NCBI GenBank assembly: GCA_036376215.1 | Contig: DASVAT010000016.1 | Span: 135,766-199,765 of the forward strand | Length of the DNA: 64,000 bases | DNA from: Solirubrobacterales bacterium | GTDB taxonomy: Bacteria; Actinomycetota; Thermoleophilia; Solirubrobacterales; 70-9 | Direction of reading: 5' to 3' | In this document: in pieces, positions 1-17,123 of the stretch | Layout of the letters: each line of letters starts with the position of its first letter | How positions within the stretch are numbered: the stretch's first letter is position 1 | Position numbers and translations under genes: made by a program | The notes under the pieces: generated by a model | What the model saw: the letters and a program-made list of their open reading frames with translations, nothing else | Databases searched by the model: none | What the model was told of the DNA's origin: nothing

Positions 1-1
1 C

Positions 2-1935: not shown

Positions 1936-3076
1936 GGCCCGTCGAGTATGGCTCCGTCGAGGGAAGGACACGACCGAAGACGAAGTCGTAGAGATCGCGC
2001 CGGGCGAGCTGAGCGGTCTCTTCGCCGCCCCGCAGTGGCTGCGCGACCTCGGCGTCTCGGCATGGCTGCTGTTCGGCGTTGGCGCCGCCCTGGTGGCGGC
2101 GATCTGGTTGTTGTCGCTGACCGAGACGATCGTGATGCCGGTGATCACCGCGGGGATCATCGCCGCCGTCGCCGGGCCGCTGGTCGACCGGCTGCGCGGC
2201 GTCGGCATCCCACGGGGAATCGGCGCCGGCCTCGTCCTGGTGGCGATCGTCGCCATTGCCCTGGGGGTGGGCTACATCGTCCTCACCGGCATCGCCAGCC
2301 AGGCCGACAGCCTCTCGACCCGCCTGCAGGAAGGCGCCGCAGAGATCGAGTCGTGGGCCCACAGCCTCGGCGTCGAGGCGCCCACCGCGGCCGATGCCAA
2401 CGCGGAAGCGAGCGCCTCGATCAGCGCCGGGTTCCAGGCGCTCACGCAAGGGGTGCTGGGCGGCGTCGACAAGCTCGCCGGTCTCGCTGTCTTCCTCTCC
2501 TTCACCGCGCTCAGCCTCTTCTTCCTGCTCAAGGACGGCCCGCAGATCGGCGCCTTCGTCGAGCGCCACCTCGGGGTCCCGGTCCCGGTCGCGCACTCGA
2601 TCCTCGGCCGCGTCGCGGGCAGCATGCGCGGCTACTTCCTCGGGGTGACGATCGTCGCCGCCTGGAGCGCGCTGATCGTCGGTGTCGGGTCGCTGGTCCT
2701 GGGCGTCCCGCTCGCCGGGACCATCGCCGTCGTCACCTTCCTCGGCGGCTACGTCCCCTACATCGGCGCCTGGACCGCCGGCGGGTTCGCGGTCCTGATC
2801 GCACTCGGCGGCTCGGGCCCGGAGGCGGCGGGAGCGATGGCGGTCATCGTCCTGCTCGCCAACGGCGTCTTCCAACAGCTGGTCCAGCCGATCGCCTACG
2901 GGGCGGCGCTGAAGCTGCACCCGCTGGCGGTGCTGATCGCGACGATCGCCGGCGGCTGCCTGTTCGGCACCGTCGGCCTGGTCCTGGCGGCGCCGCTGCT
3001 CTCGGCCGCGGTGAAGATCACGGCGGACCTCAGCGCGGCGGTGGAGACGGAGGAGGAGGCCGAGGCCCCCTCCTAG
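1934..3076 (+). CDS. AI-2E family transporter (PerM/UPF0118-like permease)
   Basis: About 8 hydrophobic segments. The C-terminal pattern GGYVPYIGAW...LANGVFQQLVQPIAYG is typical of AI-2E transporters. The start is ambiguous (1913 or 1934). Confidence 0.8.
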   Translation: MARRVWLRRGKDTTEDEVVEIAPGELSGLFAAPQWLRDLGVSAWLLFGVGAALVAAIWLLSLTETIVMPVITAGIIAAVAGPLVDRLRGVGIPRGIGAGLVLVAIVAIALGVGYIVLTGIASQADSLSTRLQEGAAEIESWAHSLGVEAPTAADANAEASASISAGFQALTQGVLGGVDKLAGLAVFLSFTALSLFFLLKDGPQIGAFVERHLGVPVPVAHSILGRVAGSMRGYFLGVTIVAAWSALIVGVGSLVLGVPLAGTIAVVTFLGGYVPYIGAWTAGGFAVLIALGGSGPEAAGAMAVIVLLANGVFQQLVQPIAYGAALKLHPLAVLIATIAGGCLFGTVGLVLAAPLLSAAVKITADLSAAVETEEEAEAPS

Positions 3077-3083
3077 TCGGTGG

Positions 3084-3491
3084 CTATTCCTCCCAGCGGG
3101 CGGTCAGCTGGTAGATGATCGTGACGTCGAGGATGATCATCAGGAACGCCCACAGCGGCGCCGCGGGGAACCAGACGACCTGCGAGATGGCGTTGATCAT
3201 CACGAAGAAGATCGCCGCCCACCGGGCCCACTCGGCGCCGGCGAAGAGGCCGAGGCCGGTGCAGGCGATGATCGAGCCGAGGATCAGGTGAATCCATCCC
3301 CAGGTCGTGACGTCGGCGATGATCACTCCCTGGCCGCCGACGAAGACGATTTCGTCGTTGAGGATCCCGGCCAGGCCCCAAAGGGCGTCCAGCGATCCGA
3401 CGATGAACAAGAGGACGCCTGCGAAGACGGTCCAACCCGTCGGCTGGCGTTCCTCGACCCTGTGCCGTTCAGTGGCTCTGCTGCTCTCCAT
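3084..3491 (-). CDS. Small integral membrane protein (DUF7144-like)
   Basis: 135 aa with 4 TM segments. The FAGVLLFIVGSLDALWGLAGI and WGWIHLILG pattern is characteristic of this actinobacterial family. Confidence 0.7.
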   Translation of the reverse strand: MESSRATERHRVEERQPTGWTVFAGVLLFIVGSLDALWGLAGILNDEIVFVGGQGVIIADVTTWGWIHLILGSIIACTGLGLFAGAEWARWAAIFFVMINAISQVVWFPAAPLWAFLMIILDVTIIYQLTARWEE

Positions 3492-3651
3492 GTTGCTCTC
3501 CCTCCGGTTTGGTCTCTATCTGGTGGCAGACAGCGCCCCTACCGACAACAACACGCTGGATGCACGCAGACCATAGAACTCGCTTGATTCCCAAGCAACA
3601 ACTTCTCTGTCAAGAGTCGGCGTCCTGCGTGCGTCACCCTGGACAAACAGG

Positions 3652-4905
3652 ATGAAGCGCTCTCCGATCTACCTGGCTGTCCTGGCCGTCGTCGTCGCAG
3701 CGATGCCCCTGGTCGCCTGCGGCGGCGCGAACGACGGCGAAAGCGTCCCGCTCTCCCGCCCGGTCGAGAAGAGCCGCGTCCCGCTGCCCGCCGACTTTCC
3801 CTCCTGGCGATTTGAATCGCTGCGGCCCGCGCCACCCGGGCTCTTCGTGGTCACCTTCTCTAACCCCGCCGACAAGCGCCCCTGGGTGATCGTCTTCGAC
3901 GACGAGGGAGTGCCGCGCTGGTGGTACAACCCGGACACGCGGGCGCTCTGGGGTCAGGTCCTCGGCGACGGCAACCTCGTCTGGGCGCGGTCGTTCGGCG
4001 ACGGCTACGGCCTCGACCCGCGGATGGCGCACGAGGTCCGCACCGAGTCCGGCAAGCTCGTCCGCCTGGTCAGCACCGAGGGCTCGATCGTCGACGGCCA
4101 CGAGTACCGCGAGCTCCCCAACGGCAACGTCCTGCTCGACACCTACGTCCCGGAAACCGCCGACCTGCGCCGTTTCGGCGGCCCGAAGCTCGCGGCGATC
4201 GCCTCCGCCGAAGTCCAGGAAGTCGACCCCTCCGGCAAGGTCGTCTGGCACTGGAACTCCCGCGGGCACATCGGGTTGCGCGAGACCGGCCGCTGGTGGC
4301 GGAACGTGCTCAGCAACCCTCGCCGCCGCCTGCAACGCGAGATCTTCGACCCCGTCCACATCAACTCGATCGAGCCGCGCGGCGACGGCGAAGTCGTGAT
4401 CTCCACCCGCCACACCGACGCCGTCTACGGGATCGACCGCGCCAGCGGGGAGATCGCCTGGAAGCTGGGGGGCATCCGCACCGGCAAATCGCTGCGGGTG
4501 ACGGGGGACCCGGCGACGAAGCTGCTCGGGGGTCAGCACGACGCCCGCATCGACCGCCGCGGGCGCCTCACCGTCTTCGACAACGGCAAGGACCGGCCCC
4601 GCCGGCCCCGGGTCGTCTTCTACCGCCTCGACCTGGAGCAGCGGCGGGCCCTCTACCGCGGGCAGCTCAACGACCCCGAGGTGAGCCGCAGCCACTGCTG
4701 CGGCTCGGCCCGCGAACTGAGCGGCGGCGGCTGGCTGGTCAGCTGGGGCGACAACCCGCTGGTCACCGGATTCGACCGCGAGGGGAGGATCGCCTTCCGC
4801 CTCCACCTCCCGGCCTCGACCTTTCGCGCCGTCCCGGCCCCCGCGGGGGCGACCAGCGTGGCTCAGCTGCAGAGGGGGATGGCCGCTATGCGGGCCGGGC
4901 GATGA
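3652..4905 (+). CDS. Arylsulfotransferase (ASST)-family lipoprotein
   Basis: Signal peptide plus lipobox (PLVACGG). Beta-propeller-like HINSIEP...ISTRHTDAVYGIDRASGEIAWKLGG motif of the Arylsulfotran_2 family. Confidence 0.7.
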   Translation: MKRSPIYLAVLAVVVAAMPLVACGGANDGESVPLSRPVEKSRVPLPADFPSWRFESLRPAPPGLFVVTFSNPADKRPWVIVFDDEGVPRWWYNPDTRALWGQVLGDGNLVWARSFGDGYGLDPRMAHEVRTESGKLVRLVSTEGSIVDGHEYRELPNGNVLLDTYVPETADLRRFGGPKLAAIASAEVQEVDPSGKVVWHWNSRGHIGLRETGRWWRNVLSNPRRRLQREIFDPVHINSIEPRGDGEVVISTRHTDAVYGIDRASGEIAWKLGGIRTGKSLRVTGDPATKLLGGQHDARIDRRGRLTVFDNGKDRPRRPRVVFYRLDLEQRRALYRGQLNDPEVSRSHCCGSARELSGGGWLVSWGDNPLVTGFDREGRIAFRLHLPASTFRAVPAPAGATSVAQLQRGMAAMRAGR

Positions 4906-5782
4906 GCGGCTGGGGGCGCTGCTCCTCGCCTGCGCGCGAGGGGGGGAGGAGCAGGGCCGAGGCGCAGACGAGAGCGAAGGCGGTTGCCTGCAGGCCGATT
5001 CCCACCGCGCCGCTCGCCATCGGATCTCCGAAGACGAGGATGCCGCTGAGGATCTGGGCGGCGCTGGCGACGAGTCCCATCAGCCCGATCGTCTCGATCG
5101 CGCCGCCGCGCTGAAGGGCGGCGACGGCCGAGTACTGGGCCAGGGCCCCACAGGCGACGATCAGGGCGATCCACGGCGCCAGGACCGCGAGCGGGAGATC
5201 GCCCTCCCCGGTCAGGGCCTTGATCGCCACCCCGCCGAAGGCGAAGAGGGTGCCGGCGATGACCGCCAGCAGGGCGCCGCGGCGAATCGTGGAGCGCTGG
5301 TAGCCGATGGTCAGGGCGAGCGCCAGCAGCCCGAGGCCCCCCTCGAAGCCGAGGATCGCGGCGGGGGCGAACTGGGAGTGGCTGCCGTGGAAGCTCGGCA
5401 GGGTCAGGGCGAGGAGGACCAGGCCGATCCCGCCCAGCAGCAGGGCCAGCCACTGGCGCGGCTCGACGGAATGGCCGAAGAGCCGCTGCGAGAGGACGGC
5501 GAGGCTGACGGCGCCGCCGGCGAGCGCCGCCTGCACCAGCGAGATCGGCGCCATCGAGAGGGCCGCGACGTGGACCAGCCAGGCCACCGCCGCGGTGCCC
5601 CACCCGGCCGCGAACCACGGCGAGGCGGCGAGCCGGCGGGCGCTCTGCAGCGGCGCCTGGAGCCTCACCGGCGGGACCTGCTGGCAGCCGCGGTGCTTGA
5701 GCAGCGAGGCGAGGTTTGCCATCACCGCGCCGAGAAGGGCCAGGGCGATGCCGACTTCGACCGATCCAACCGCCGGGGTCAC
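4886..5782 (-). CDS. Polytopic membrane protein (DMT/EamA-like)
   Basis: The hydrophobic C-terminal ~298 aa of ORF 4886..6250. The GTG at 5782 overlaps the helicase stop (GTGA). The remainder of the long ORF is Arg/Pro-rich overlap with the helicase gene. Confidence 0.6.
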   Translation of the reverse strand: MTPAVGSVEVGIALALLGAVMANLASLLKHRGCQQVPPVRLQAPLQSARRLAASPWFAAGWGTAAVAWLVHVAALSMAPISLVQAALAGGAVSLAVLSQRLFGHSVEPRQWLALLLGGIGLVLLALTLPSFHGSHSQFAPAAILGFEGGLGLLALALTIGYQRSTIRRGALLAVIAGTLFAFGGVAIKALTGEGDLPLAVLAPWIALIVACGALAQYSAVAALQRGGAIETIGLMGLVASAAQILSGILVFGDPMASGAVGIGLQATAFALVCASALLLPPSRAGEEQRPQPLIARPA

Positions 5783-6927
5783 GACCTGGACGCCCCCTTG
5801 CGGCCACGCCGCCGGCCCTTCGGGGCGGGTCGCGAGCTGAGCTGCTTCGGACGGCCGCCGTGGGTCACCTCGAACTCCCGGACCAGGCCGAGGTTGCCCG
5901 CCATGCGGCGGACGTCGTCGGCCTGGTCGGCGAGGACGAAGCTGACGCCGGTGCCGCTGCGACCGGCCCGGCCGGTGCGGCCGACGCGGTGGACGTAGGC
6001 GTCGTGATCCTCCGGGGCGTCGTAGTTGATCACGTGGGTGATGCCCTCGACGTCGATGCCGCGGGCGGCGACGTCGGTGGCGACGAGAGCATCTACCTCG
6101 CCGTTCTCGAACCGCGCCAGGGCGCGTTCGCGCTGTCCCTGGCTCTTGTCGCCGTGCATCGCGACGGCCTCGACCTTGCGGCCGCGCAGTCGCTTGACCA
6201 GCCGGTCGGCGCCGCGCTTGGTGCGGACGAAGACGATCGTCGGCCCGCACTCGTCCTCACTCAGCTGGGCGACCAGGTGGTCGAGCTTCTCGCCCTGGCT
6301 CTCGACCGGGAGGAAGCGGTGCTCGATGTCGGCCTTCGCCTGCTTCGGCGCGTGGGTGTGGGTGCGGGCGTCGCGGGTGTAGGCCTTGGCGACCTTGCCG
6401 GTCGCGCCCTCGAGCGTCGCCGAGAAGAACAGGGTCTGCCGCTTGTCGGGCGTCTGTTTGACGATCCGGTCGACGGCCGGCTTGAAGCCCATGTCGAGCA
6501 TCCGGTCGGCCTCGTCGAGGACGAGCACGCGGACGTGCTTCAGGCTGACGACGCCGCGGGCGATCAGGTCCTCGAGGCGGCCGGGGGTGGCGACGACGAC
6601 GTCGGCCCTGCCGACGGCCTTGATCTGGGGACCGAACCCGACCCCGCCGTAGACGGCGGCGATCTTCAGCCCCTGGGTCTCGGCGAGGGGGCGGAGGTCT
6701 TCGACGATCTGACCGGCGAGCTCGCGGGTGGGGGCGAGGACCAGGGCGCCGATGCGTCCCTGCTCGGGGGAGAGTCGCTCGACCGTCGGGATGCCGAAGG
6801 CGAGCGTCTTGCCAGACCCGGTCGGGGACTGGACGAGGAGGTCATGCCCGGCGAGCGCGTCGCGGATGACCAGCTGCTGGACGGGGAACGGGGTGGTGAT
6901 CTCACGGCGCGCGAGCGCACGGATCAC
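5779..6927 (-). CDS. DEAD-box ATP-dependent RNA helicase
   Basis: Motifs SPTGSGKT (I), PTRELA (Ia), DEAD (LVLDEADRML), SAT and HRVGRTGRAG (VI). The real start is probably upstream, near 6966 (see finding). Confidence 0.95.
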   Translation of the reverse strand: MIRALARREITTPFPVQQLVIRDALAGHDLLVQSPTGSGKTLAFGIPTVERLSPEQGRIGALVLAPTRELAGQIVEDLRPLAETQGLKIAAVYGGVGFGPQIKAVGRADVVVATPGRLEDLIARGVVSLKHVRVLVLDEADRMLDMGFKPAVDRIVKQTPDKRQTLFFSATLEGATGKVAKAYTRDARTHTHAPKQAKADIEHRFLPVESQGEKLDHLVAQLSEDECGPTIVFVRTKRGADRLVKRLRGRKVEAVAMHGDKSQGQRERALARFENGEVDALVATDVAARGIDVEGITHVINYDAPEDHDAYVHRVGRTGRAGRSGTGVSFVLADQADDVRRMAGNLGLVREFEVTHGGRPKQLSSRPAPKGRRRGRKGASRS

Positions 6928-7275
6928 AGGTTGGGATATGCCGAGATCGGCAAACGAAACGGTTATGGAAGTGCTCCTTATTTGAACGCTAGGGAGATCC
7001 TGCGGCCCCTAGGCGCCGGATGGCACACGGAGGAAACGGAACCTCTCGGGATGGCGAATCGGCCAAGCCCGACCCAGTCACGGTAGCAGGCGACCTGGTT
7101 TCCGGTTGCCGGTCGAGGGGTACTTCACAAAAAGCATCCTGAACAGAATTCCTCGCAGCGCCACCAGTCGGAGGAAGGCTTTTCGGGCTCATCTGCAAGG
7201 CCTGGTGTCGCGCCGTCTCTCATCTCTGATTCGCGCCGATCTCGGGACTCGAACCCCCACTCAGGAGGAATCAAG

Positions 7276-7611
7276 ATGGAGTCAGCAACCACCCGCGTCC
7301 GCGGTGCGGACGCAGTAAACGACCGCCCCGCCGGCCGCGGCACCGTCCGGCGTCTCGCTACCGAGACCAAGCAGGCGTTCAAGACCACCGAGTTCTGGGC
7401 GATGGTCGGCGTGATCGTCGCCATCCTCGTCAGCGCCGCGGTCATCAAGGGCGGCGACACCGCCGGCACCGACGAGTTCATCGCCAAGCAGGCGTGGCTC
7501 TACGTCGCCATCGTCGCGGTCGGCTACATGATCAGCCGTGGCCTGGCGAAGTCCGGATCGCGCGATCCCTACGACGCCGACAGCGGCGACCGCGACGGGC
7601 GCCAGCGCTAG
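7276..7611 (+). CDS. Small membrane protein, 2 TM
   Basis: AGGAGG lies 6 nt upstream of the ATG. Two hydrophobic helices, high GC3, and a canonical terminator downstream. Confidence 0.65.
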   Translation: MESATTRVRGADAVNDRPAGRGTVRRLATETKQAFKTTEFWAMVGVIVAILVSAAVIKGGDTAGTDEFIAKQAWLYVAIVAVGYMISRGLAKSGSRDPYDADSGDRDGRQR

Positions 7612-7633
7612 GCCCGATCGCACGCGTAGTTCA

Positions 7634-7661
7634 GGGGGCGGTGATTTCACCGCCCCCTTTT
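7634..7661 (+). terminator. Rho-independent terminator
   Basis: gggggcggtg / attt / caccgccccc: a 10-bp GC stem followed by tttt. Confidence 0.8.
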
Positions 7662-7704
7662 CATTGCCCCTGCCCCTGCCGATGCGGACTGCGGCTATCT
7701 TCGC

Positions 7705-8637
7705 TTGCTTCCTGTGAATATCGCCCTCAGAGCCGTGCTCGTCGCCCTAGCCCTGCTTGCGCTCGGCGCCGGCCTCAGCGACGAGTCCTCCGGGGCAGAG
7801 TGGGAAGGGCTGCCGGTCGTCCCGGCGCTCGAGCCCGGCGTCGCCGGCCACCTGGAGGAGATCGCCGGCCGGGGGGAGCGGCTGGGCAACAGGCCGGGGG
7901 TCTTCGCCAAGATCGGCGACAGCATCACCGCGTCGCCGTCGTTCCTGCAGGCGCTTGCGTGCCGGGCGCCCCGCCTGGGGGCCTGGAGCGAGCTGCGGGG
8001 GACGCTGGAGTTCTTCGGCGAGACCCCGGTGCCGGCGGGCTCCGAGTTGGCCCTCTGCGCGGTCAGCAACAGCTACTCGCGCCTCGGCGTCGCCGCCGTG
8101 GGCGGCTGGAGGGCGGTCGACGCCCTCGCCCCGCGCGAAGCGCTTCCCGAATGCCAGGCGCTGCCCGCCGTCAGCTGCGAGCTGCAACTGCTCCGCCCGT
8201 CGGTCGCCCTGATCATGCTCGGGACCAACGACCTGGAGTCCTTCACCGCGGCCGAATACCGCCGCGATCTCGCTCGCCTGGTCCGGCTCGTCTCCGGCGC
8301 GGGGACGATTCCGGTGCTCAGCACGATCCCGCCCCGTGTGCAGTTCCCCTTCTCGCAGCGGGTCGCCCGGTTCAACGCGGAGATCGCCGCCCTCGCCGAG
8401 AACCGGGCGCTGCCGCTGTGGAACTTCTGGCGGCAGCTGGCCGGGCCGGGCGTTCCCCGCCAGGGGCTGGGCAGGGACGGTGTCCACCCCAGCGCGCTCT
8501 GCCCTCCCTGCACCGCAATCGACTTCCGTCCCGCCGGCCTCCGCTACGGCTACGCCCTGCGGAACCTCGGAGCGCTGCGGGTCCTCGATCGCCTCCGCCG
8601 CCGGATCCCGCTGGGCGAGGGCGGTGGAGCCGGCTAG
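7705..8637 (+). CDS. Secreted SGNH/GDSL-family hydrolase
   Basis: Signal peptide. Block I GDSIT, block III MLGTND, block V DGVHP. Confidence 0.8.
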   Translation: MLPVNIALRAVLVALALLALGAGLSDESSGAEWEGLPVVPALEPGVAGHLEEIAGRGERLGNRPGVFAKIGDSITASPSFLQALACRAPRLGAWSELRGTLEFFGETPVPAGSELALCAVSNSYSRLGVAAVGGWRAVDALAPREALPECQALPAVSCELQLLRPSVALIMLGTNDLESFTAAEYRRDLARLVRLVSGAGTIPVLSTIPPRVQFPFSQRVARFNAEIAALAENRALPLWNFWRQLAGPGVPRQGLGRDGVHPSALCPPCTAIDFRPAGLRYGYALRNLGALRVLDRLRRRIPLGEGGGAG

Positions 8638-9842
8638 CCGGCCACGTGGCGTGGACGGAGGCGCCTGCTCGCCAGCCTACGAGTCCCTCGGATCAGCGCA
8701 TAGGAGCCGAGGGCCAGCGTCAGGGTCCCGGTCACGGTCAGGCCCCAGCGGACGGGGATCGCCAGGTCGGTGGTCGAGAGCGAGCTCTGCAGGGCGACCA
8801 GGAACGGGATGTGGATCAGGTAGATCCAGAAGCTCGCGTCCGACAGGTAGCGCAGCACCCGCGACTCCTTGCGTACGTAGCGAGCCAGCACCCCCCAGAG
8901 GCCGAACAGGGTGAGCCAGCAGACGATGCCGACGGTGAACAGCCCGTAGAGGCGCAGCGCGTCGATTTCGGCAAGCACGCCCGGCGTGCCGACGTTGCCG
9001 GTGAAGTCGCCGTTGTCGTAGAAGAGGAGAAAGGCGGGAACCGCGATCGCCGCCCCGGCCGCGAGCCGCAGCCAGGCCCGGTGTTTCAGCTGCTCGATCA
9101 GCTCGCTCTGGCCGCTGAGCAGCCAGCCGAAGAGGAAGAAGAAGCTGTAGTAGGCGAAGAGGGTCGGGGCGGGGATCAGCGAGTTGGAAGCCGCCCCTCC
9201 CGCCACCCAGCCGGTCTTGGTGCTCAGGATCGCGGCGCTGATCGCCGCCAGGGCCGGCACCGCCCACCACGACCTCATCAGCTGGCCGAAGCCGCGGTTG
9301 ATCGCCGCTCCCAGCTGCGGCGCCCGCTGGATCGCCAGCCAGATCCCGATCGCGACCAGGGAGATCATCAGCAGGTAGGCGATGAACCAGAGGTGCCGCG
9401 GCGTCAGGCTGAAGACGTTGGCGAGGTCCAGTTCCCGTTTCGGCGGCAGCTCGCCCTTGCGCGGCCAGAGGGCAGCCGCGCCGATGACGAGGAGGTTGGC
9501 GAGCGGCACCACCGTCAGCATCCCGACGAACAGCGGCACGCCGAGCCGGCGAAAGCGGGCGCGCAGCTGCCGGGCGGCGGTGGACCGGCGCAGCGCGCTG
9601 GCGGCCAGGAAGCCGGAGATGGCGAAGAACAGGGGCATGTGCCAGGCGTGGACGAACCAGACGACGGCGTCGACGATCCTCGGGTCCCCGTCGCCCTTCT
9701 GGATGTAGCGAGCGGCGTGGTAGGGGATCAGGAGCAGAATCGCCGAGACCCGGATGGCATCCAGGTGGTGACTACGCCGGGCTCCGGACTGCGCACGCAG
9801 GGCTTTCTCCTCGATGGATGGTCGCCACGTGAAGTCACGCAC
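8634..9842 (-). CDS. Acyltransferase family 3 (AT3) membrane protein
   Basis: About 10 TM segments. The N-terminal HLDAIRVSAILLLIPYH motif is typical of AT3/OafA-type O-acyltransferases. Confidence 0.8.
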   Translation of the reverse strand: MRDFTWRPSIEEKALRAQSGARRSHHLDAIRVSAILLLIPYHAARYIQKGDGDPRIVDAVVWFVHAWHMPLFFAISGFLAASALRRSTAARQLRARFRRLGVPLFVGMLTVVPLANLLVIGAAALWPRKGELPPKRELDLANVFSLTPRHLWFIAYLLMISLVAIGIWLAIQRAPQLGAAINRGFGQLMRSWWAVPALAAISAAILSTKTGWVAGGAASNSLIPAPTLFAYYSFFFLFGWLLSGQSELIEQLKHRAWLRLAAGAAIAVPAFLLFYDNGDFTGNVGTPGVLAEIDALRLYGLFTVGIVCWLTLFGLWGVLARYVRKESRVLRYLSDASFWIYLIHIPFLVALQSSLSTTDLAIPVRWGLTVTGTLTLALGSYALIRGTRRLASRRLRPRHVAG

Positions 9843-9956
9843 TCCGCTGCCCCGTCGCGATGTTCGGACGGGACCTCGGAGCTATGCCCTCCGCGAACCA
9901 CCTACCCTGCAAACCGCGTTTGACACGAGGAAGCCCCGCCTTATCTGTCGGCCTCC

Positions 9957-10415
9957 TCAGAGGAGATCGGACGGGTCCAGCACGAACACCTCGCACATCA
10001 GGTCGGGCTCCTGCTGGTTGCCGCTCATGAAGCCGATCACCTTGCGGCCGGTCGCCCTTTCGACGACCTCCTCGAAGCGCTCGCGCATCAGCTCCTGGAA
10101 CGCCATCCGCTGCTCGATGACAGCGGAGCCGCGGCCCCCGTCGAGGAGGGTCTGCTCGACCTGGGTGAAGCCACCGCGCAGGACGCAGACGACGAGGTCG
10201 TCCTGGTAGTAGGACTTGGCCTGGGTGGGACCGCGCCCGTAGAACTCCTTCAGCAGCGCGACCAGCCCGTCGGAGATCGCCGTCAGCTCGTCGCCGTGGC
10301 GGCGCTTCGCTTCCGCTGCCGTCTGGCTCTGGGCTGGGTCGAGATCGGGTCGAGGGATACGGCGATGGTAGACCAGCGCGCTACGCTGGTCTAACCGCTC
10401 GTTGGGTTCTTCCAC
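9957..10415 (-). CDS. DUF2294 domain protein
   Basis: ISDGLVALLKEFYGRGPTQAKSYY...VVCVLRGGFTQVEQTL...R.AFQELMRERFEEVVERATGRKV matches the DUF2294 pattern. Confidence 0.7.
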   Translation of the reverse strand: MEEPNERLDQRSALVYHRRIPRPDLDPAQSQTAAEAKRRHGDELTAISDGLVALLKEFYGRGPTQAKSYYQDDLVVCVLRGGFTQVEQTLLDGGRGSAVIEQRMAFQELMRERFEEVVERATGRKVIGFMSGNQQEPDLMCEVFVLDPSDLL

Positions 10416-10465
10416 CCTCTGCCTCGCGCGCGCTCCTAGTCAGAGGACGAGAAAGAAGGCCCGAC

Positions 10466-10837
10466 ATGTCGGCCCCGATCCCACCCCTGAACGGCGACGA
10501 GTTGCTCGCCGCGGTGACCGATTCGATGGTCGCCCTGCACGAGCGCTACTACCACCGCGCCCCGGTGAGCGCCAAGACCCAGATGCTCGGGGAGGACCTC
10601 CTCGCCTGCGTGATGGGCGGCGTCTACACCGAGGTCGAGCAGACGATGATCGAGCTGCAGCGCGGCACCCTGGTACAGGAAACCCGCAGCGCCTTTCAGC
10701 AGGCGATGCAGCAGAGGTTCATCGACGAGGTGGAGCGTCTCTCGGGGCGCGAGGTGATCGCCTTCATATCCAATTCCCACGTCGGCCCCGACATGGAGGT
10801 CGAGCTGTTCATGTTCCGGGACCCGGTCCCTGTCTAG
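10466..10837 (+). CDS. DUF2294 domain protein (divergent paralogue)
   Basis: VTDSMVALHERYYHRAPVSAKTQM...LACVMGGVYTEVEQTM...RSAFQQAMQQRFIDEVERLSGREV aligns with the neighbouring protein. Confidence 0.7.
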   Translation: MSAPIPPLNGDELLAAVTDSMVALHERYYHRAPVSAKTQMLGEDLLACVMGGVYTEVEQTMIELQRGTLVQETRSAFQQAMQQRFIDEVERLSGREVIAFISNSHVGPDMEVELFMFRDPVPV

Positions 10838-10956
10838 GGGTCGACGGGAGCACAGGGCTCCGCTAATCTGATTCGAGGAGGGCATCACTGCGGTCGGCGC
10901 TCAGCCGGCAACACCAAGTGACTTCCGGACCCAGCTGTCGAATCGAGGAGTCCGAA

Positions 10957-11361
10957 ATGTCCCTTCCCACCGCTTCCCTCACTTCATCCAGCGGCCCCGC
11001 TGTCGCGTCGCCGCCCCTCTTCTCCTGCACCCGCAGGGCCGAGGGTCGAGGCTCGATTCGGCTCGTCCTCGCCGGCGAGCTGGACCTCAGCGCCCGCGCC
11101 CACTTCGAGGAGGCGCTGAAGGACGCCCAGTCCGACGCGAACCGCGTCGTCCTCGACCTGCAGGCGCTGACGCTGATCGACTGCGCCTCCCTCTCCGTCC
11201 TCTTCGACGCCGCCCTCGAAGCTCGCCGCCAGGACGCGGTGCTCATCTTGCTCGAGCCTCGCGGGCAGGTGCGGCGCGTGCTCGATCTCACCGGTGCCCC
11301 CAACGGGGTCGCGGTCCTGGAGCGCAGCGACGGCGAACGGCGGGCCGCCGGCGCTTTCTGA
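10957..11361 (+). CDS. STAS-domain protein (anti-sigma-factor antagonist-like)
   Basis: The pattern LAGELDLSARAHFEEAL...VVLDLQALTLIDCASLSVL...RRVLDLTG is typical of SpoIIAA/STAS. GAGGAG lies 6 nt before the ATG at 10957. Confidence 0.75.
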   Translation: MSLPTASLTSSSGPAVASPPLFSCTRRAEGRGSIRLVLAGELDLSARAHFEEALKDAQSDANRVVLDLQALTLIDCASLSVLFDAALEARRQDAVLILLEPRGQVRRVLDLTGAPNGVAVLERSDGERRAAGAF

Positions 11362-11439
11362 GAACACCCGGCCACGGACCAGGGCGATCATGGAGAGCAA
11401 AGGCTCGACTCCCCATCTCGCCCTGCTGCTGGCGGCGCG

Positions 11440-11679
11440 ATGTTCGTCTGCGTGATCGACACGTCGCTGATGAACGATCGAGGCGCTGGTCTCCCGAGCG
11501 CGGAGCGCGGCTGGTATCTCGTCATCCCGCTGATGTTCGCCGGGGCTGGGCTCAACGATGACGCCCGACCCCTGGCCCTCCAGGTCGCCCTTCTCGTCCC
11601 TCTCCTGGCTGCGCTGATCGGCCTTCTCAGCTCCATTCGAATGATGCGCCTTCCCGACCCCGCGCCATTGGCGCGGTAG
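11440..11679 (+). CDS. Hypothetical small hydrophobic protein
   Basis: 79 aa with two hydrophobic stretches. My hand count gives about 80% GC at third codon positions in this frame. No family recognised. Confidence 0.4.
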   Translation: MFVCVIDTSLMNDRGAGLPSAERGWYLVIPLMFAGAGLNDDARPLALQVALLVPLLAALIGLLSSIRMMRLPDPAPLAR

Positions 11680-11736
11680 ATCCCTGCCCACGCATCCTTG
11701 CGCGACGCGGCCGGCCTCTCTGGCATCATCGAGGAC

Positions 11737-11937
11737 GTGGAGCGGCCCCACGTAAAGCTGAGCGGAGACGTCGAAGGTGCCTACGTCGTTGAGGAGACGC
11801 GGAGCGATGGGCGTCTCGTGTTTTCGCCAGATACGTCTGCTCAGGCCATCATGGAGCGTTTGGCCCATGAGCCAACGACCCTCGCAGAGTTCGAAGCCGA
11901 GTACGGGGCCGTGAAGCCGCCTGACGGCGAGGGGTAG
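11737..11937 (+). CDS. Small acidic protein, putative antitoxin (cassette 1)
   Basis: Paralogue of 12790..13008 (shared HV[KR]LSG, G.YVV.E.R.DG.L, PDTS..AI.ER, C-terminal PPDGEG). I chose the GTG at 11737 by alignment with the paralogue N-terminus; the ORF track starts at 11698. Confidence 0.6.
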   Translation: MERPHVKLSGDVEGAYVVEETRSDGRLVFSPDTSAQAIMERLAHEPTTLAEFEAEYGAVKPPDGEG

Positions 11938-11939
11938 TC

Positions 11940-12689
11940 GTGCCGATCAAGCGAGGCTTCGCTTCCGTCGCCTTCGACGAGCTGGCCTGGCATGAGGATC
12001 TGCGCCAGGCAGCGCGAAGCGAATCGGCGAAGAAGCTCGCTTCCGGCTGGAACGCGAGGGTCAAGCAGTCGATGCGCTCTTCGCCTGCGACGAGGATGCG
12101 CGATGGGACCAGTCTCCCTGGCTGCGTCAAGGTCTACCTTCCTCCTCCCGGCGGACCTCTCGGCCTCGTCTTCCGACTCGCCAAAGGGAAGGACGGGCGG
12201 CTCCATCTCGACCATCTGGCATTCGGCGTGCGACACATATACTGGCGGACCCAGTTGATCTCGGATATTGACGGCCTCGTCGCACGGGCGGAAGCTCAGA
12301 CCGACATGGAAGTCCAGTCTGACTACGCCAAATATTTGACGATTCGGGTCCTTGGGCTAGTCGAGCAGGTAGTGGCAGAGATCGTTCTGGCTCACGTCAG
12401 CGCCCAAGCGAGTCCGCCCGTGCTCAGCCACACGACCTGGAAAATGAAGCGCTTCCAGAATCCGAACCCCCAACGTCTAATCGAGCTTGTTGGGTCGTTC
12501 GACCGAAGGTGGGGGGACTCCCTCGAATCCGCCCTAACTAGTAGTTCAGAGCGCGAGGCGCTGGGAAGTATCCGTTCGCAGCGGAATCGCATCGCGCATG
12601 GTGAACCGACGACGATCTCGCTGGTCCAAGTCAAGGGCTACTTTGCCGAAATCAAGTCGATGCTCAATCGGGTCGCAGCTCCTTTCTAG
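11940..12689 (+). CDS. Chimeric protein: RelE/ParE-like N-terminal region fused to a HEPN-like (RNRIAH) C-terminal domain
   Basis: The N-terminal ~98 aa are paralogous to 13012..13374 (RDGTSLPGCVKVYLPPPGGPLGLVFR...LAFGVRH). From about 12237 the GC content drops, and the sequence carries the Rx4H motif RNRIAHG (12582-12602). The GTG start lies 2 nt after the upstream stop. Confidence 0.65.
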   Translation: MPIKRGFASVAFDELAWHEDLRQAARSESAKKLASGWNARVKQSMRSSPATRMRDGTSLPGCVKVYLPPPGGPLGLVFRLAKGKDGRLHLDHLAFGVRHIYWRTQLISDIDGLVARAEAQTDMEVQSDYAKYLTIRVLGLVEQVVAEIVLAHVSAQASPPVLSHTTWKMKRFQNPNPQRLIELVGSFDRRWGDSLESALTSSSEREALGSIRSQRNRIAHGEPTTISLVQVKGYFAEIKSMLNRVAAPF

Positions 12690-12789
12690 GTGCCGAACTG
12701 AGAGGGGGGTCTTCCGCATGAACTTGAGCCGGACGGCCGCTGGGCCTGCGGTTTCAGGATCGGGAGCGTCGTAGATTACGATTCATGGG

Positions 12790-13008
12790 ATGGAGCCTCC
12801 ACGCGACCACGTCCGCCTCAGCGGCGAGCGAGCCGGCGATTACGTCGTCACCGAGGAGCGGCCCGACGGTTCGCTCACCCTCGTGCCCGATACCTCATGG
12901 AAGGCCATCAAGGAGCGCTCCGGCGCCCGGGATGCCACCAAGGAGGAGTGGGAGAGCTTCATGCAGGAGCATGGCCCCAACATGCTCCCCCCCGACGGCG
13001 AGGGGTAG
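12790..13008 (+). CDS. Small acidic protein, putative antitoxin (cassette 2)
   Basis: Paralogue of 11737..11937, with an identical 15-nt 3' end (gacggcgaggggtag). Confidence 0.6.
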   Translation: MEPPRDHVRLSGERAGDYVVTEERPDGSLTLVPDTSWKAIKERSGARDATKEEWESFMQEHGPNMLPPDGEG

Positions 13009-13011
13009 CCG

Positions 13012-13374
13012 TTGACCGACAAGTTGCGGTTCCCGGCTCGCTTCGACGCCGACGCTTTTCGCGAGGACATGGCGGGAGCGACGCCAGCCGGCCGAAGCGC
13101 CGCCGAGATCGCCAAGCGCGACTACGAAGCTAACGGCGTTCCCATGTCGGATCTCCGGTCCTGCGACCCGGAAGGACGCGACGGAACGGTTCTTCCTCAG
13201 TGCCTCAAGCTCTATCTCCCACCGCCGGTGGGGCGTTTCGGGATGGTCTTCAGGTTCGTGGTCGCTAACGACGCGCCTCGACTCGACTACCTCGCCTTCG
13301 GCGTCCGCCATCACCCCGCCGGCTCGAACGCACCGACGGTCTACGAGATCGCCCACCGTCGACTGCACGACTAG
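13012..13374 (+). CDS. RelE/ParE-superfamily-like putative toxin (cassette 2)
   Basis: The TTG start lies 3 nt after the upstream stop. LPQCLKLYLPPPVGRFGMVFRFV...RLDYLAFGVRHHPAGSNAPTVYEIAHRRL resembles the RelE/ParE beta-sheet and C-terminal pattern. This assignment is an inference. Confidence 0.55.
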   Translation: MTDKLRFPARFDADAFREDMAGATPAGRSAAEIAKRDYEANGVPMSDLRSCDPEGRDGTVLPQCLKLYLPPPVGRFGMVFRFVVANDAPRLDYLAFGVRHHPAGSNAPTVYEIAHRRLHD

Positions 13375-13504
13375 GACTCGTCTTAAGCAGCGAGGCCGCA
13401 GGACTGTGGCACCGACTGTGTGGCACGAGGCCAAGAACGGCAGCATGTAGGCGGGGCGGGCAAGGCGCAGTCGCGCGCATTTGGCTCTACGAAGCCCCCA
13501 CAAC

Positions 13505-13534
13505 AGAAAACGCCCCGGCGGGGGAGCCGGGGCG
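13505..13534 (-). terminator. Rho-independent terminator with no annotated gene upstream
   Basis: On the minus strand: cgccccggc / tccccc / gccggggcg followed by ttttct. Confidence 0.65.
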
Positions 13535-13931
13535 CTTCTGGGGTTACTACAGGGAGGAGAGATATGTATCTCTATATATGTGTGGATCCGTGGGAGGTAG
13601 GTGAGCCCGGTTTATGTCGAGTGCGTCGCTGTGGGAAGCAGCGAGGCGATAGTCGACGCGGGGTTCAGCCTTGAAGTCTTTGGTTGATCTCCTTGATCGG
13701 TCTTCCCTTGCGAATCCTTGAACAGCGTACGAACGTATGTGCGACTTGTGTGTGAGTGGGGTCACAGAGATCCTGCAATTGACGGACTCTGCGGCCTCTC
13801 TACCCGATTTGCCCTAGACGACCAGATCAAATTTGGTGATCGGTGGGGCGGCGGGCTCGGCTGAGTGTCGCATCGCATTCTTCAGCTCGAATAAAAGGCC
13901 AGTCCGGGGGCCTCGCTGTAGCTTTCGGCGG

Positions 13932-14720
13932 GTGAGAAAGTCCCGGATAGACGCGGTTTTGGCCGACCGCGGGATCTTTCCGTCCCGCTCGGCGGCGGCG
14001 GGCGCCGTGCGGGCCGGCGAGGTCCGCATCGGCCAGGACGGCCCGGTGGCGCTGCGGCCGAGCCAGCTGGTCGAGCCGGACGCGAACCTGATCGTCGCCG
14101 AGGGCCCGCGCTACGTCTCCCGCGGCGGCACCAAGCTGGAGAACGCGCTCGAGGCGCTGGGGATCGACGTCGCCGGGCGGGGCTGCCTCGACGTCGGCGC
14201 CTCGACCGGCGGCTTCACCGACTGCCTGCTGCAGCGCGGCGCCACCCGGGTGGCCGCGGTCGACGTGGCCTACGGGCAGCTCGACGTGCGCCTGCGGGAG
14301 GATCCACGTGTGCACGCGATCGAGAGGCTGAACGCGCGGGAGCTGGCGCCGGCGAACCTGCCCTTCGTGCCGTCGCTCGCCACGGTCGACGTCTCCTTCA
14401 TCTCCCTGGCCAAGGTGCTGCCGGCGGTGAGCCGCTGCCTGGAGCCCGGAGGGGAGATCCTGGCGATGGTCAAGCCGCAGTTCGAGCTTGGCCGGGACCG
14501 CGTCGGAAAGGGGGTCGTGCGCGACCCCGCCGACCGTCGCGAGGCGATCCTTGCCGTCGCCCTCGCGGCCCGCGATCTGGGCCTGGCGGTGCGCGGCTTC
14601 GCCTCCTCCGGCCTGCCGGGTCCGAAGGGGAACCGGGAGACGTTCGTCTGGTGCGGAGGGAGCGGCGCCGAGGTCGACGACCTCGAAGGGGCGATCGCCG
14701 CCGTCGAGGGGGACGAGTGA
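13932..14720 (+). CDS. tlyA: TlyA-family rRNA (cytidine-2'-O)-methyltransferase
   Basis: S4-like N-terminus RIDAVLADRG, SAM motif DVGASTGGFTD, and MVKPQFE. The GTG at 13932 gives the conserved N-terminus. Confidence 0.9.
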   Translation: MRKSRIDAVLADRGIFPSRSAAAGAVRAGEVRIGQDGPVALRPSQLVEPDANLIVAEGPRYVSRGGTKLENALEALGIDVAGRGCLDVGASTGGFTDCLLQRGATRVAAVDVAYGQLDVRLREDPRVHAIERLNARELAPANLPFVPSLATVDVSFISLAKVLPAVSRCLEPGGEILAMVKPQFELGRDRVGKGVVRDPADRREAILAVALAARDLGLAVRGFASSGLPGPKGNRETFVWCGGSGAEVDDLEGAIAAVEGDE

Positions 14721-15559
14721 AGACCGCCGCCCTGATCACCCACTCGCACCCGCCGAGCGCCTCCGAAGCGGTCGCCGTCGCGGCCGAGGTCGCCCACGAG
14801 GCCGGCTGGCGCCTGGCGGCGACCGAGCAGGAGCTGGAAAAGCACGGCGCCGCCGGCGAGGGCGTCGACGTCACCGCCGAACACACGGTCCCCGACATCT
14901 GCCTCGTGCTGGGCGGCGACGGCTCGATCCTCCACGCGCTGCGCCGCTACGCGCACACCGAAGTCCCCGTCTTCGGCGTCAACTTCGGGACTGTCGGGTT
15001 CCTCGCCGCGGTCGAGCGCGACCAGGCGGCCGAGGGAATCCGCCGCGCGCTCGCCGGCGACTACGAGACGATCCACCTGCCCGGCCTCGAGGTGAAGGTC
15101 GACGGCACCGAGCAGGTGGGGCTGAACGACATCACCCTCGCCCGGCGGCCGCACGACCGCGTCGCCGAGCTCAGCTACCGGATCGCCGGCGAGGAGGTGG
15201 GGCACGTCCGCTGCGACGGCCTCGTCGCCGCCACGCCGGTCGGTTCCACCGGCTACAACCTCGCCAACCAGGGACCGATCCTGGCCTGGGGCGTGAAGGG
15301 CTACGTCGTCAGCTACATCTCGCCGCACTCGCTGACCGCGCGGGCGCTGGTCGTCGCCCCCGGCGACGTCCTCCACGTCGGCAACGCACCCGAACGCGAG
15401 CCGGTCGAGGTCGCGGTCGACGGCGGCAAGATCGCCGACCTCGCCGCCGGCGGTTCGCTGGAGATCCGCTTCCTCGACTCGGTGAGCCGCCTGGCCCAGC
15501 TCCCGGGGACGAGCTTCTACCAGCGCATACGCGAGAAGTTCGGGCATTTAGCGGTCTAA
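14717..15559 (+). CDS. nadK: NAD+ kinase
   Basis: GGDG motif (VLGGDGSILHA), NFGTVGFL, and TPVGSTGYNLA. GTGA overlap with the tlyA stop. Confidence 0.9.
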   Translation: MKTAALITHSHPPSASEAVAVAAEVAHEAGWRLAATEQELEKHGAAGEGVDVTAEHTVPDICLVLGGDGSILHALRRYAHTEVPVFGVNFGTVGFLAAVERDQAAEGIRRALAGDYETIHLPGLEVKVDGTEQVGLNDITLARRPHDRVAELSYRIAGEEVGHVRCDGLVAATPVGSTGYNLANQGPILAWGVKGYVVSYISPHSLTARALVVAPGDVLHVGNAPEREPVEVAVDGGKIADLAAGGSLEIRFLDSVSRLAQLPGTSFYQRIREKFGHLAV

Positions 15560-15605
15560 GGCGACTTCCTCAGCCGAGATAGACGGTTCTCTAGGGTCTG
15601 CCGCC

Positions 15606-17123
15606 ATGGAGCGCAAGTGGTGGACCCTGGTCCTGGTCTCGGTCGCGACGTTCATGCTGCTGCTCGACGTCACCGTCGTCAACGTCGCCCTGCCGGACAT
15701 CCAGCGGGAATTGAACGCCAGCCTCTCGAGCCTGCAGTGGGTGGTCGACGCCTACTCGCTGATGCTCGCCGCCTTCCTGCTGACCGCCGGCTCGCTCGGC
15801 GACCGGCTGGGCCGGCGGCGGGTGTTCACGATCGGTTTCGGCGTCTTCACCCTGGCCTCGTTCCTCTGCGGGATCGCCGAGGACCCGACCCTGCTCAACC
15901 TGGCGCGCGGGCTGCAGGGCGTCGGCGGGGCCGGCATGTTCGCCACCTCGCTGGCCCTGATCGGCCAGGAGTTCCACGGCAAGGACCGGGCGACGGCGTT
16001 CGGTGTCTGGGGGGCGACCGTCGGCGGCGCCGTCGCCGTCGGCCCGCTGATCGGCGGCGTCGTCACCGAGAGCCTCGGCTGGGAGTGGATCTTCTTCATC
16101 AACGTCCCGATCGGGATCGCGGCGATGGTCCTGACTGAGCGCCAGATCGTCAACGTCTCGGCGCAGGACCCGGAGCCGATCGACTACCCCGGCCTCGTCA
16201 CCTTCTCCTCGGCGCTCTTCCTCCTCATCTTCGGCCTGATCCGCGGCAATCCCGAGGGCTGGGGGAGCCCGCTGATCCTCGCCTGCCTGATCGGCGCCGC
16301 CGTCCTGATGGCGCTCTTCGTCGCGATCGAGCGCCGCAGCGGCCACCCGATGCTGGACCTGACGCTGTTCCGCAAACCCGCCTTCAACGGGGTCTCGGCG
16401 GTCGCCTTCTTCCTCTCGGCGGGGATGTTCGCCCTCTTCCTCTACCTGACGATCTACATGCAGGGGGTGCTCGACTACTCGCCGCTCGAGGCCGGCCTCC
16501 GCTTCCTGCCGCTGACCGTCCTCGGCTTCGTCGTCGCGCCGATCTCCGGCGCGCTCTCGCACCGGGTCCCGATCAGGATCCTGCTGGGCGTGGGCCTGGC
16601 CACCGTCGGCGTCGGCCTGCTGCTGATGCACGGCGTCGAGGTCGACTCGACCTGGACGACGCTGCTGGTCGGCTTCCTCCTCGCCGGGATCGGGATCGGG
16701 ACGACCAACCCTGGCATCGGACAGGCTGCGATCGCCGTCGTCCCGGTGGAGAAATCGGGGATGGGATCGGGGATCAACACGACCTTCCGCCAGGTCGGGA
16801 TCGCGACCGGCGTCGCCGGGCTCGGCGCCGTCTTCCAGGGTCGCGTCGACTCGAAGCTGAGCGAATTGCTGCCCAACGCCCCCGACGGGTTCGGCGAAGC
16901 GGTCGCCTCGGGCGGCTCACGGGCGGTATCCGAACTACAGTTGCCGCCCGGGCTCCACGTCAAGGCGACCCACGCCGCCGACGTCGCCTTCGTCGGCGCC
17001 TTCAACGACATCATCCTGATCGCGGCGATCGGCTCCTTCCTCGGCGCCGTCCTCGGGTTTCTTCTCGTGAGATCCGAGGACTTTGTTCAACCGACCGACG
17101 GCCCGAGCGAGCCGTCTGGGTAG
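15606..17123 (+). CDS. MFS transporter, DHA2 (EmrB/QacA-like, 14 TM)
   Basis: MLLLDVTVVNVALPDIQ, GSLGDRLGRRRVF (motif A) and a 14-TM layout. Confidence 0.9.
   Translation: MERKWWTLVLVSVATFMLLLDVTVVNVALPDIQRELNASLSSLQWVVDAYSLMLAAFLLTAGSLGDRLGRRRVFTIGFGVFTLASFLCGIAEDPTLLNLARGLQGVGGAGMFATSLALIGQEFHGKDRATAFGVWGATVGGAVAVGPLIGGVVTESLGWEWIFFINVPIGIAAMVLTERQIVNVSAQDPEPIDYPGLVTFSSALFLLIFGLIRGNPEGWGSPLILACLIGAAVLMALFVAIERRSGHPMLDLTLFRKPAFNGVSAVAFFLSAGMFALFLYLTIYMQGVLDYSPLEAGLRFLPLTVLGFVVAPISGALSHRVPIRILLGVGLATVGVGLLLMHGVEVDSTWTTLLVGFLLAGIGIGTTNPGIGQAAIAVVPVEKSGMGSGINTTFRQVGIATGVAGLGAVFQGRVDSKLSELLPNAPDGFGEAVASGGSRAVSELQLPPGLHVKATHAADVAFVGAFNDIILIAAIGSFLGAVLGFLLVRSEDFVQPTDGPSEPSG

Follow-up and report, generated by a model that had tools for sequence, protein, structure and literature searches.

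In a stretch of DNA from a Solirubrobacterales bacterium, the open reading frame (ORF) of 249 amino acids (aa) located at positions 11940..12689 of the plus strand is a real in-frame chimera and very probably the one-off scar of a recent rearrangement, composed of the remnant of a toxin-like gene and of a HEPN gene bereft of its DUF262 partner. This stretch, hereafter called the window, comprises 64,000 nucleotides (nt) of Solirubrobacterales bacterium (70-9) (assembly GCA_036376215.1, contig DASVAT010000016.1, positions 135,766-199,765 of the forward strand) and originates from a metagenome-assembled genome (MAG). The ORF starts with GTG, and its product is found in the public record as an identical sequence, 'MAG TPA: HEPN domain-containing protein [Solirubrobacterales bacterium]', which counts a single member, on a single contig. 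It belongs to one of two tandem pairs of the window, in each of which a small ORF lies upstream of a larger ORF: A1 with the 249-aa ORF, and A2 with T2. An earlier reading made from the letters of the DNA (sequence-only reading) had described an in-frame chimera here, which is indeed present, and had seen in it an evolved fusion toxin; the latter interpretation fails because the architecture does not recur, the partner of the HEPN gene is missing and the N-terminus is damaged.

The C-terminal half of the ORF is a HEPN domain of the RiboL-PSP type, as had been proposed. Indeed, residues 100-244 match Pfam PF18735 (HEPN_RiboL-PSP) (score 52.3 bits, E = 8.8e-14; gathering threshold 28.4 bits) over profile positions 3-184 of 191, and the predicted helical character of this domain agrees with its AlphaFold2 (AF2) model, which is all-helical with a predicted local distance difference test score (pLDDT) of 94. 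The HEPN gene body (12248..12689, plus strand) lacks its first 20 nt, start codon included. The Rx4H motif, R215...H220 in QRNRIAHG (12582..12599, plus strand), is well placed in the family: in an alignment of 27 HEPN sequences the R, N, A, H and G of QRNRIAHG are invariant, which bears out the signature noticed earlier at R215 and H220, and all 20 invariant positions are kept in the ORF; what is gone is the LPW motif at the N-terminus, which almost all members of the family possess. In Foldseek searches with the HEPN model, HepT, AF_0298, ST0689, SO_3166 and Csm6 recur near the top of the matches, which are weak (E 0.4-2, template modelling (TM) score ~0.4-0.55). Chance resemblance is ruled out for the domain matches and the motif, as it is for the paralogy described below.

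Protein homologues were sought in 5.8 billion clusters and by an exhaustive HMMER search against 1.84 billion representatives, which gave 984 matches, of which the best 150 were examined. About 27 homologues of the HEPN part were found in the clusters, with 52-98% identity, all of them stand-alone proteins of 145-156 aa. These proteins start with M[IL]LPWTATQLIS (MILPWTATQLIS), at which place the ORF reads ..VRHIYWRTQLIS / ..GVRHIYWRTQLIS.., and alignment to the stand-alone genes shows that the window HEPN is devoid of its own first 7 codons. The identical MAG protein is the only one to cover both halves among the matches listed in the 5.8 billion clusters. Likewise, each of the best 150 of the 984 HMMER matches covers the HEPN part only (98-185 aa) or the toxin part only (101-130 aa), and no fusion of toxin and HEPN is among them. 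The toxin-like plus HEPN architecture is thus, among the matches listed, a singleton and not a conserved multidomain family. The comparison of homologues of the C-terminal region, set in advance, showed that this HEPN domain occurs stand-alone and paired with DUF262, which points to a rearrangement remnant.

The native unit of this HEPN gene is a PD-T4-2-like two-gene cassette, made of a DUF262/GmrSD_N gene of ~377 aa and a HEPN gene of 152 aa. Among the related contigs compared with the window (designated L below), 11 loci encoding a stand-alone HEPN, from at least 5 genomic contexts, were retrieved, and in every one of them the HEPN gene lies directly 3' of a GmrSD_N (DUF262) gene encoding 376-393 aa, with a gap of 5-12 nt or a 4-nt overlap. 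By contrast, no DUF262 gene was detected by tblastn in the 64-kb window (best E 0.83), where the DNA adjoining the HEPN sequence on its 5' side is the toxin remnant. When compared with the PADLOC models, the A protein of the relatives (L001 was tested) matched NsnA (E = 1.3e-64) and PD-T4-2_A (1.1e-48) over nearly its full length, and 22 of the 27 HEPN family members matched PD-T4-2_B models (best E 4.9e-6). PD-T4-2 consists of DUF262 and PF18735 domains according to a review (PMC10952713) and protects E. coli against T4, both natively and on transfer, as was shown for the ECOR65 system (Vassallo et al. 2022, PMC9519451). The window shares with it the PF18735 family of its HEPN half. It differs from PD-T4-2, however, by the absence of the A gene and by a B gene deprived of its start and first 7 codons, whose product has no match to the PD-T4-2_B models at E <= 0.1; moreover, the HEPN family as a whole is distant from the E. 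coli proteins, and the A proteins of the relatives score higher against NsnA of Menshen. Menshen is composed of three genes, namely NsnA, the ATPase NsnB and NsnC (PMC12065111), whereas in the relatives the NsnA-like protein is always followed by the 152-aa HEPN, and neither the NsnB ATPase nor NsnC was found 3' of the cassette in any of the 11 related loci.

Three further systems resemble the cassette in part. The 2013 HEPN survey lists in a table a 'Ribo L-PSP-HEPN' with the remark 'operon with ParB' (Anantharaman et al. 2013, PMC3710099); the Rx4-6H motif, the small all-helical protein and, in the relatives, the DUF262 neighbour fit this entry, but no endoribonuclease L-PSP fusion is present here and the N-terminal attachment is a decayed, non-conserved RelE-like fragment, which in combination with a RiboL-PSP HEPN is not a described architecture. 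HepT of the HepT-MntA pair ranks among the structures that best match the HEPN model (TM score ~0.5), both being small Rx4-6H HEPN proteins; these matches are, however, weak, as indicated above, no MNT nucleotidyltransferase gene is adjacent, and the conserved neighbour is DUF262. The type IV restriction enzymes GmrSD, BrxU and SspE are fusions of DUF262 to a DUF1524 His-Me nuclease. They have in common with the related cassettes the DUF262 NTPase-type N-terminal module (GmrSD_N), and a GmrSD_C fragment is carried by locus L020, but the effector in these cassettes is a separate HEPN, a predicted RNase, instead of a fused DUF1524 DNase, and the window contains neither of the two GmrSD domains.

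The cassettes have a G+C content of 52-59% in every host, whatever the G+C content of the host. They are marked as mobile cargo by their neighbours in other contigs, which include tyrosine integrases, a TrwC relaxase and direct repeats derived from the 3' part of a tRNA. As a separate observation, such direct repeats flank the DUF262-HEPN island beside a tyrosine integrase (L014, 644-709 and 7208-7295; L015, 4993-5080), and the same repeat is found at L017 600-688, 38 nt past a truncated T1-type gene; these repeats are probably att sites of cassette-carrying elements.

The N-terminal half of the ORF, here named T1' (11940..12247, plus strand), is the decayed 5' part of a toxin-like gene of RelE/ParE fold, and it supplies the start codon and the Shine-Dalgarno sequence of the ORF. 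The sequence-only reading had taken it for a truncated paralogue of the ORF at 13012-13374 (T2), and this relationship is clear: residues 12-99 are 45% identical to T2 (BLASTP E = 4e-17). T1' is also 85% identical at the nucleotide level to its orthologues in L006 and L023. An intact member of the T1 subfamily, protein P0159, has 122 aa, and T1' has lost the conserved C-terminal ~21 residues, a part that includes the family-invariant P102, V110, Y111 and R117. With the T2 model as a guide, T1' ends after strand 3, and the C-terminal helix is absent. In addition, a segment of 31 codons (residues 23-53; 12006..12100, plus strand) is out of frame, the family consensus GSAKRIGEEARFRLEREGQAVDALFACDEDAR being encoded there in a different frame. 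This segment is bounded by two deletions, of 7 nt and 2 nt, which are found in the window alone and are absent from L006, L023 and L018; since these deletions shift the frame, residues 23-53 are unrelated sequence at the place where the T2 model has helix 2. Judging from that model, the N-terminal 99 residues cannot form a RelE-like fold recognisable by an antitoxin.

Upstream of T1' lies A1 (11737..11937, plus strand), an intact antitoxin-like ORF of 66 aa (79 aa from the TTG at 11698) whose stop codon TAG occupies 11935-11937, 2 nt before the GTG of the chimeric ORF at 11940; the small upstream ORF and its tight spacing are therefore retained, as had been noted earlier. A1 has no match in Pfam, NCBIfam or PADLOC, and the best PDB match of the small upstream ORF has E = 0.24. 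It is a paralogue of A2, the A2 protein of L001 being 100% identical to A2 of the window and 50% identical to A1. Compared with its L006 orthologue, it has a ratio of non-synonymous to synonymous substitution rates (dN/dS) of 0.078 at a dS of 0.44, and by this substitution pattern A1 is still intact and constrained.

In the intact downstream pair, A2 (12790..13008, plus strand) is an antitoxin-like ORF of 72 aa, identical at 100% over 68 residues to its L001 orthologue and with no detectable relatives of known function, and T2 (13012..13374, plus strand) is an intact 120-aa member of an uncharacterised family of RelE/ParE fold that counts at least 394 proteins of ~120 aa. No Pfam, NCBIfam or PADLOC model exists for this family, and neither T2 nor the toxin part of the ORF matches any model of Pfam or NCBIfam at E <= 1; a T2-family profile built from 39 homologues retrieved no PDB chain below E = 1.9. 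The AF2 model of T2 (pLDDT 92) has a helix-helix-strand-strand-strand-helix layout, and its nine best PDB matches in Foldseek are all RelE, YoeB/ParE or HigB2 structures, the best being 2khe (E = 3.6e-3, probability 1.00, TM score 0.61). The RelE/ParE-like nature proposed for the paralogue is thus upheld at the level of structure: a RelE/ParE-like fold of T2 is moderately supported by the model, and membership in the superfamily by sequence is not supported. A2-T2, and originally A1-T1, resemble RelBE, YefM-YoeB, HigBA and ParDE in their organisation, with a small conserved ORF upstream of a 120-aa ORF at a distance of 2-3 nt, and in the fold layout of T2. They differ from these pairs in that no sequence model of the superfamily matches, the structural E value is modest even for the best hit, the family has a specific invariant motif of its own (LAFGVRHHP..TVY..AH.RL) and T1' is broken; the toxin and antitoxin roles deduced from this gene arrangement remain putative.

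Taken together, these data bear directly on the proposal of a RelE(N)-HEPN fusion toxin that evolved by the exchange of one RNase module for another and is still neutralised by the upstream antitoxin through a kept N-terminal fold. Both modules share one frame, the small ORF upstream is kept together with its 2-nt spacing, the paralogue has a RelE-like fold and the HEPN domain scores above the Pfam threshold, all of which could favour such a toxin. Nevertheless, with helix 2 out of frame and the C-terminal helix missing, the fold recognised by an antitoxin is not kept; the HEPN half is itself truncated, being short of 7 codons, and elsewhere it always has its own start and its DUF262 partner (11 of 11 related loci), a partner lost here; no second example exists among the matches listed in either protein search; and the junction is younger than ~2% of sequence divergence. 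A fusion toxin of this kind is therefore highly improbable.

The junction between toxin-derived and HEPN-derived DNA is located at 12237..12247 (plus strand), on the basis of alignments with L003 and L001 on the HEPN side and with L023, L006 and L018 on the toxin side, in good agreement with the switch previously placed at about 12237. On the HEPN side, homology to L001, L002 and L003 begins at exactly 12248, the equivalent of nt 21 in the HEPN gene of these three loci, which have the DUF262 gene to the left of this point where the window has toxin-like sequence. To the right, identity to the same loci is 92.9-97.8% over the HEPN gene and ~87% through A2, T2, tlyA, nadK and recN. On the toxin side, homology to the toxin family extends at least as far as 12236 (..GVRH), and L023 has an intact toxin 3' end (...AFGVRHLPAGSRGETVYLLAHR), by which the toxin homology of the window reaches at least 12239. 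The two sequences are consequently joined within ~10 nt, with a microhomology of a few nt at most and possibly 2 nt of filler. A toxin-side 22-mer has one true relative (L023) and one chance match: all 22 nt of this toxin-gene sequence (CTCGACCATCTGGCATTCGGCG, encoding LDHLAFG) recur in an unrelated gene (L022, 975-996), hence the LDHLAFG-coding stretch is not specific to the toxin family.

The drop in G+C content noticed earlier across this switch is real, the HEPN part having 57.4% (50-65% per 60 nt), but the contrast with the flanks is smaller than was claimed: T1' has 65.3%, T2 65.8% and A2 68.5%, not more than 70%, a value reached only by the window mean (70.2%) and by housekeeping genes such as tlyA (73%).

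Several comparisons point to a young junction. From 12248 onward, the HEPN body shares 97.8% nucleotide identity with the intact gene of L003 (439 nt compared, with substitutions at 6 positions and a single insertion of 3 nt) and 92.9% with that of L001; the join is recent, since the HEPN body is nearly identical to that of L003, which keeps its DUF262 gene. The branch leading to the window HEPN has accumulated 2 non-synonymous and 2 synonymous substitutions in addition to the 3-nt insertion, and the L003 branch 0 non-synonymous and 2 synonymous ones; these changes lean towards relaxed constraint, in numbers too small for a test. A1 and T1' differ from L006 at ~15% of their nucleotides, with a dN/dS of 0.08-0.09 in the ancestral frame, and the substitutions of T1' on the window branch are 8 synonymous against 1 non-synonymous in the same frame, which indicates that the frameshifts of T1' are young.

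A promoter-like signal was also noted at this place: the sole sigma-70-like match in 11300-13900 (0.2 expected by chance) is located at 12216-12243, with CTGGCA, a 16-nt spacer and TATACT. It spans the junction, its -10 box is made of junction bases, and it is followed in frame by a TTG at 12255 and an ATG at 12297.

The preferred reading, that of a scar, could be accounted for by the following series of events. The ancestor would have carried an A1-T1 pair, then a mobile DUF262 and 152-aa HEPN cassette of lower G+C content, then A2-T2. A deletion or an illegitimate recombination with little or no microhomology would have cost T1 its 3' end and the HEPN gene its first 20 nt, with loss of the entire DUF262 gene between them; the remaining pieces would have come to lie in the same frame by a 1-in-3 chance. 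The only good start signal left for the HEPN sequence is the GTG of T1', translationally coupled to A1. With its DUF262 partner gone, the defence system would be dead, and the chimera would be either untranslated or unstable, or an orphan HEPN with a non-functional leader of ~100 residues heading to decay.

A number of facts weigh against this reading. The ORF is open throughout, a good Shine-Dalgarno sequence GAGGGG followed by TAGTCGTG precedes a start coupled to A1, and all conserved HEPN residues are kept; furthermore, the two deletions of T1' add up to 9 nt, so that the frame is regained after the second, which could reflect selection for read-through into HEPN and not chance. An intact A1-T1 pair directly upstream of DUF262-HEPN was found in no contig, and a simple deletion and a recombination with a foreign segment fit the data alike. 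Finally, the junction and the two deletions are known from a single assembled contig of a MAG, and the exact junction 39-mer has no match in JGI metagenome contigs or GTDB representative genomes.

This last point touches the question of an assembly artefact, that is, a chimera of two strains, one L006-like (A1-T1 upstream of tlyA) and the other L001/L003-like (DUF262-HEPN-A2-T2). Besides the MAG source, the single occurrence of the fusion protein on one contig and the lack of a second 39-mer, both parental arrangements do exist in related populations. The parents, however, share no identity of k-mer length at the join, so that a substrate for a mis-join would presumably be wanting; both flanks are syntenic with related genomes for kilobases; and deletions of 7 and 2 nt would be atypical of short-read consensus errors. 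An artefact is for these reasons very unlikely.

The intact reading frame can also be explained by a functional orphan effector, translated from the T1' start in coupling with A1 and endowed with an active HEPN, of which the toxin remnant would be an initiation leader or an N-terminal tag. Such a protein would be a stand-alone HEPN toxin or abortive-infection module, free of DUF262 gating. The open ORF with its start and Shine-Dalgarno sequence intact, the 20 invariant HEPN positions kept in a confident model, the two deletions that jointly restore the frame and the strong purifying selection on A1 (dN/dS 0.078) are all compatible with it. On the other hand, the architecture is a singleton without any sign of persistence, the LPW motif is lost, the HEPN substitutions on the window branch lean, in small numbers, to relaxed constraint, and a HEPN RNase freed from its gating would presumably be toxic, A1 having no known means of neutralising it. 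Overall, a functional orphan effector is rather unlikely, and so is its role as an ungated toxin or abortive-infection module.

In a more elaborate form of the same idea, the HEPN gene, after loss of the DUF262 sensor, would have taken over the expression signals of a disabled toxin gene (promoter, ribosome-binding site and start codon) and become a new orphan effector co-transcribed with A1, a course of events that appears improbable. It would imply that the paired deletions were selected because jointly they abolish the toxin fold and still let ribosomes pass in frame into the HEPN domain, and this part is equally doubtful. If it were true, the locus would offer a snapshot of defence effectors being rewired onto a toxin-antitoxin regulatory chassis.

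Under the preferred reading of a rearrangement scar, the direct importance of the ORF is low, as the claim of a RelE-HEPN fusion toxin fails. The locus nevertheless calls for caution in annotation, the recorded 249-aa 'HEPN domain-containing protein' being a truncated PD-T4-2-like B gene stuck to a pseudogene, and it could serve as a worked example of in-frame chimeras arising by deletion in defence and toxin-antitoxin islands. Better targets for experiments would be the intact DUF262+HEPN cassettes and the A2-T2 family (~400 homologues, no Pfam model).

The region in which the junction lies is itself variable. In Solirubrobacterales, the DNA preceding tlyA is a hotspot of mosaic composition, with cassettes that lie between copies of a hairpin element: the flanks of this region are syntenic with L001 and L006, and the middle differs from genome to genome. 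In the window, the variable segment measures 8.75 kb (3492..12247), and L001 has 2.15 kb there, ending with the DUF262 gene and the start of the HEPN gene; positions 1-3491 of the window correspond to 445-3868 of L001, and 12248 onward to 6021 onward, with no match between. L006 shares with the window the lipase, the acyltransferase, A1-T1' and tlyA, and has 50 nt in place of HEPN-A2-T2. The repeated hairpin element found at the right edge of the variable region (13481..13562), copies of which occur in related genomes, is an intergenic element of 65-85 nt, with a G+C-rich hairpin followed by GGGGTTACTACAGGGAGGAGAGA. Copies were found in L001 (two, 4644-4707 and ~7425-7490), L002 (two, 1-39 and 2714-2808), L004 (three), L005 (two), L006-L009 and L023 (1372-1434). 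The element is terminator-like on the minus strand, and one pair of its stem shows a compensatory change (GC in 5 copies, CG in 4). In L001, L002, L004, L005 and L023 it brackets cassettes, among them A1-T1, DUF262-HEPN-A2-T2 and a toxin-antitoxin pair of the PIN type. The element may delimit the cassettes or serve as a recombination substrate.

Other origins were considered for the island and set aside. A tRNA integration site is not indicated at this locus, ARAGORN having found no tRNA in 9000-16000 or in the 11 related loci; the two tRNAs of the window are 20 kb off, and tRNA 3' fragments only are present in L014, L015 and L017. A plasmid origin received no indication from PLSDB, where 11600-13600 had no blastn match. 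Finally, a shared recombination hotspot at TTCGGCG(T), where the toxin genes of the window, L006 and L017 would all have a common breakpoint in a motif matching the core of a tRNA-derived att repeat, was dropped because L023 shows that the toxin homology of the window runs further and because the 3' end of the L006 gene is degenerate, not cleanly truncated.

Damage to T1-subfamily genes is not peculiar to the window. In nearly every lineage sampled these genes have inactivating damage, of different kinds, and the upstream A1 is intact (L006, 4982-5330; L017, 264-695; L018/L019, 5001-5435; L020, 370-873; L021, 1475-1930; L023, 1690-2043). L018, L019, L021 and L023 share a frameshift of 1 nt, placed identically in the alignment (codon ~85), downstream of which coding potential is kept in the new frame; recurrent loss, a mutation-prone site or programmed frameshifting may be at the origin of this pattern. 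The gene at L020 370-873 is an independent in-frame chimera, located after an intact A-type ORF on a contig of 1088 nt only, and unites T1-type codons 1-78 with the last ~85 residues of GmrSD_C (DUF1524). As for the T2 family, a homologue with 84% identity (P0043) is labelled 'Nitrososphaerota archaeon' (NCBI MAG), and all the other named sources are Solirubrobacterales; the archaeal label is probably a binning error.

Furthermore, two divergent MpsC-domain genes (9957-10415, minus strand; 10466-10837, plus strand), followed by a STAS-domain gene (10918-11361), sit in the part of the island in which the window, L001 and L006 are unlike one another. The stretch 13540-13840, located between the hairpin element and tlyA, has a low G+C content (51-57%) and a strong positive GC skew, and a search of Rfam gave nothing near threshold for either this stretch or the hairpin. 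It contains a strong Shine-Dalgarno-like sequence (GGGAGGAG) before a short ORF (MYLYICVDPWEV...), which is conserved in L001 and L006.

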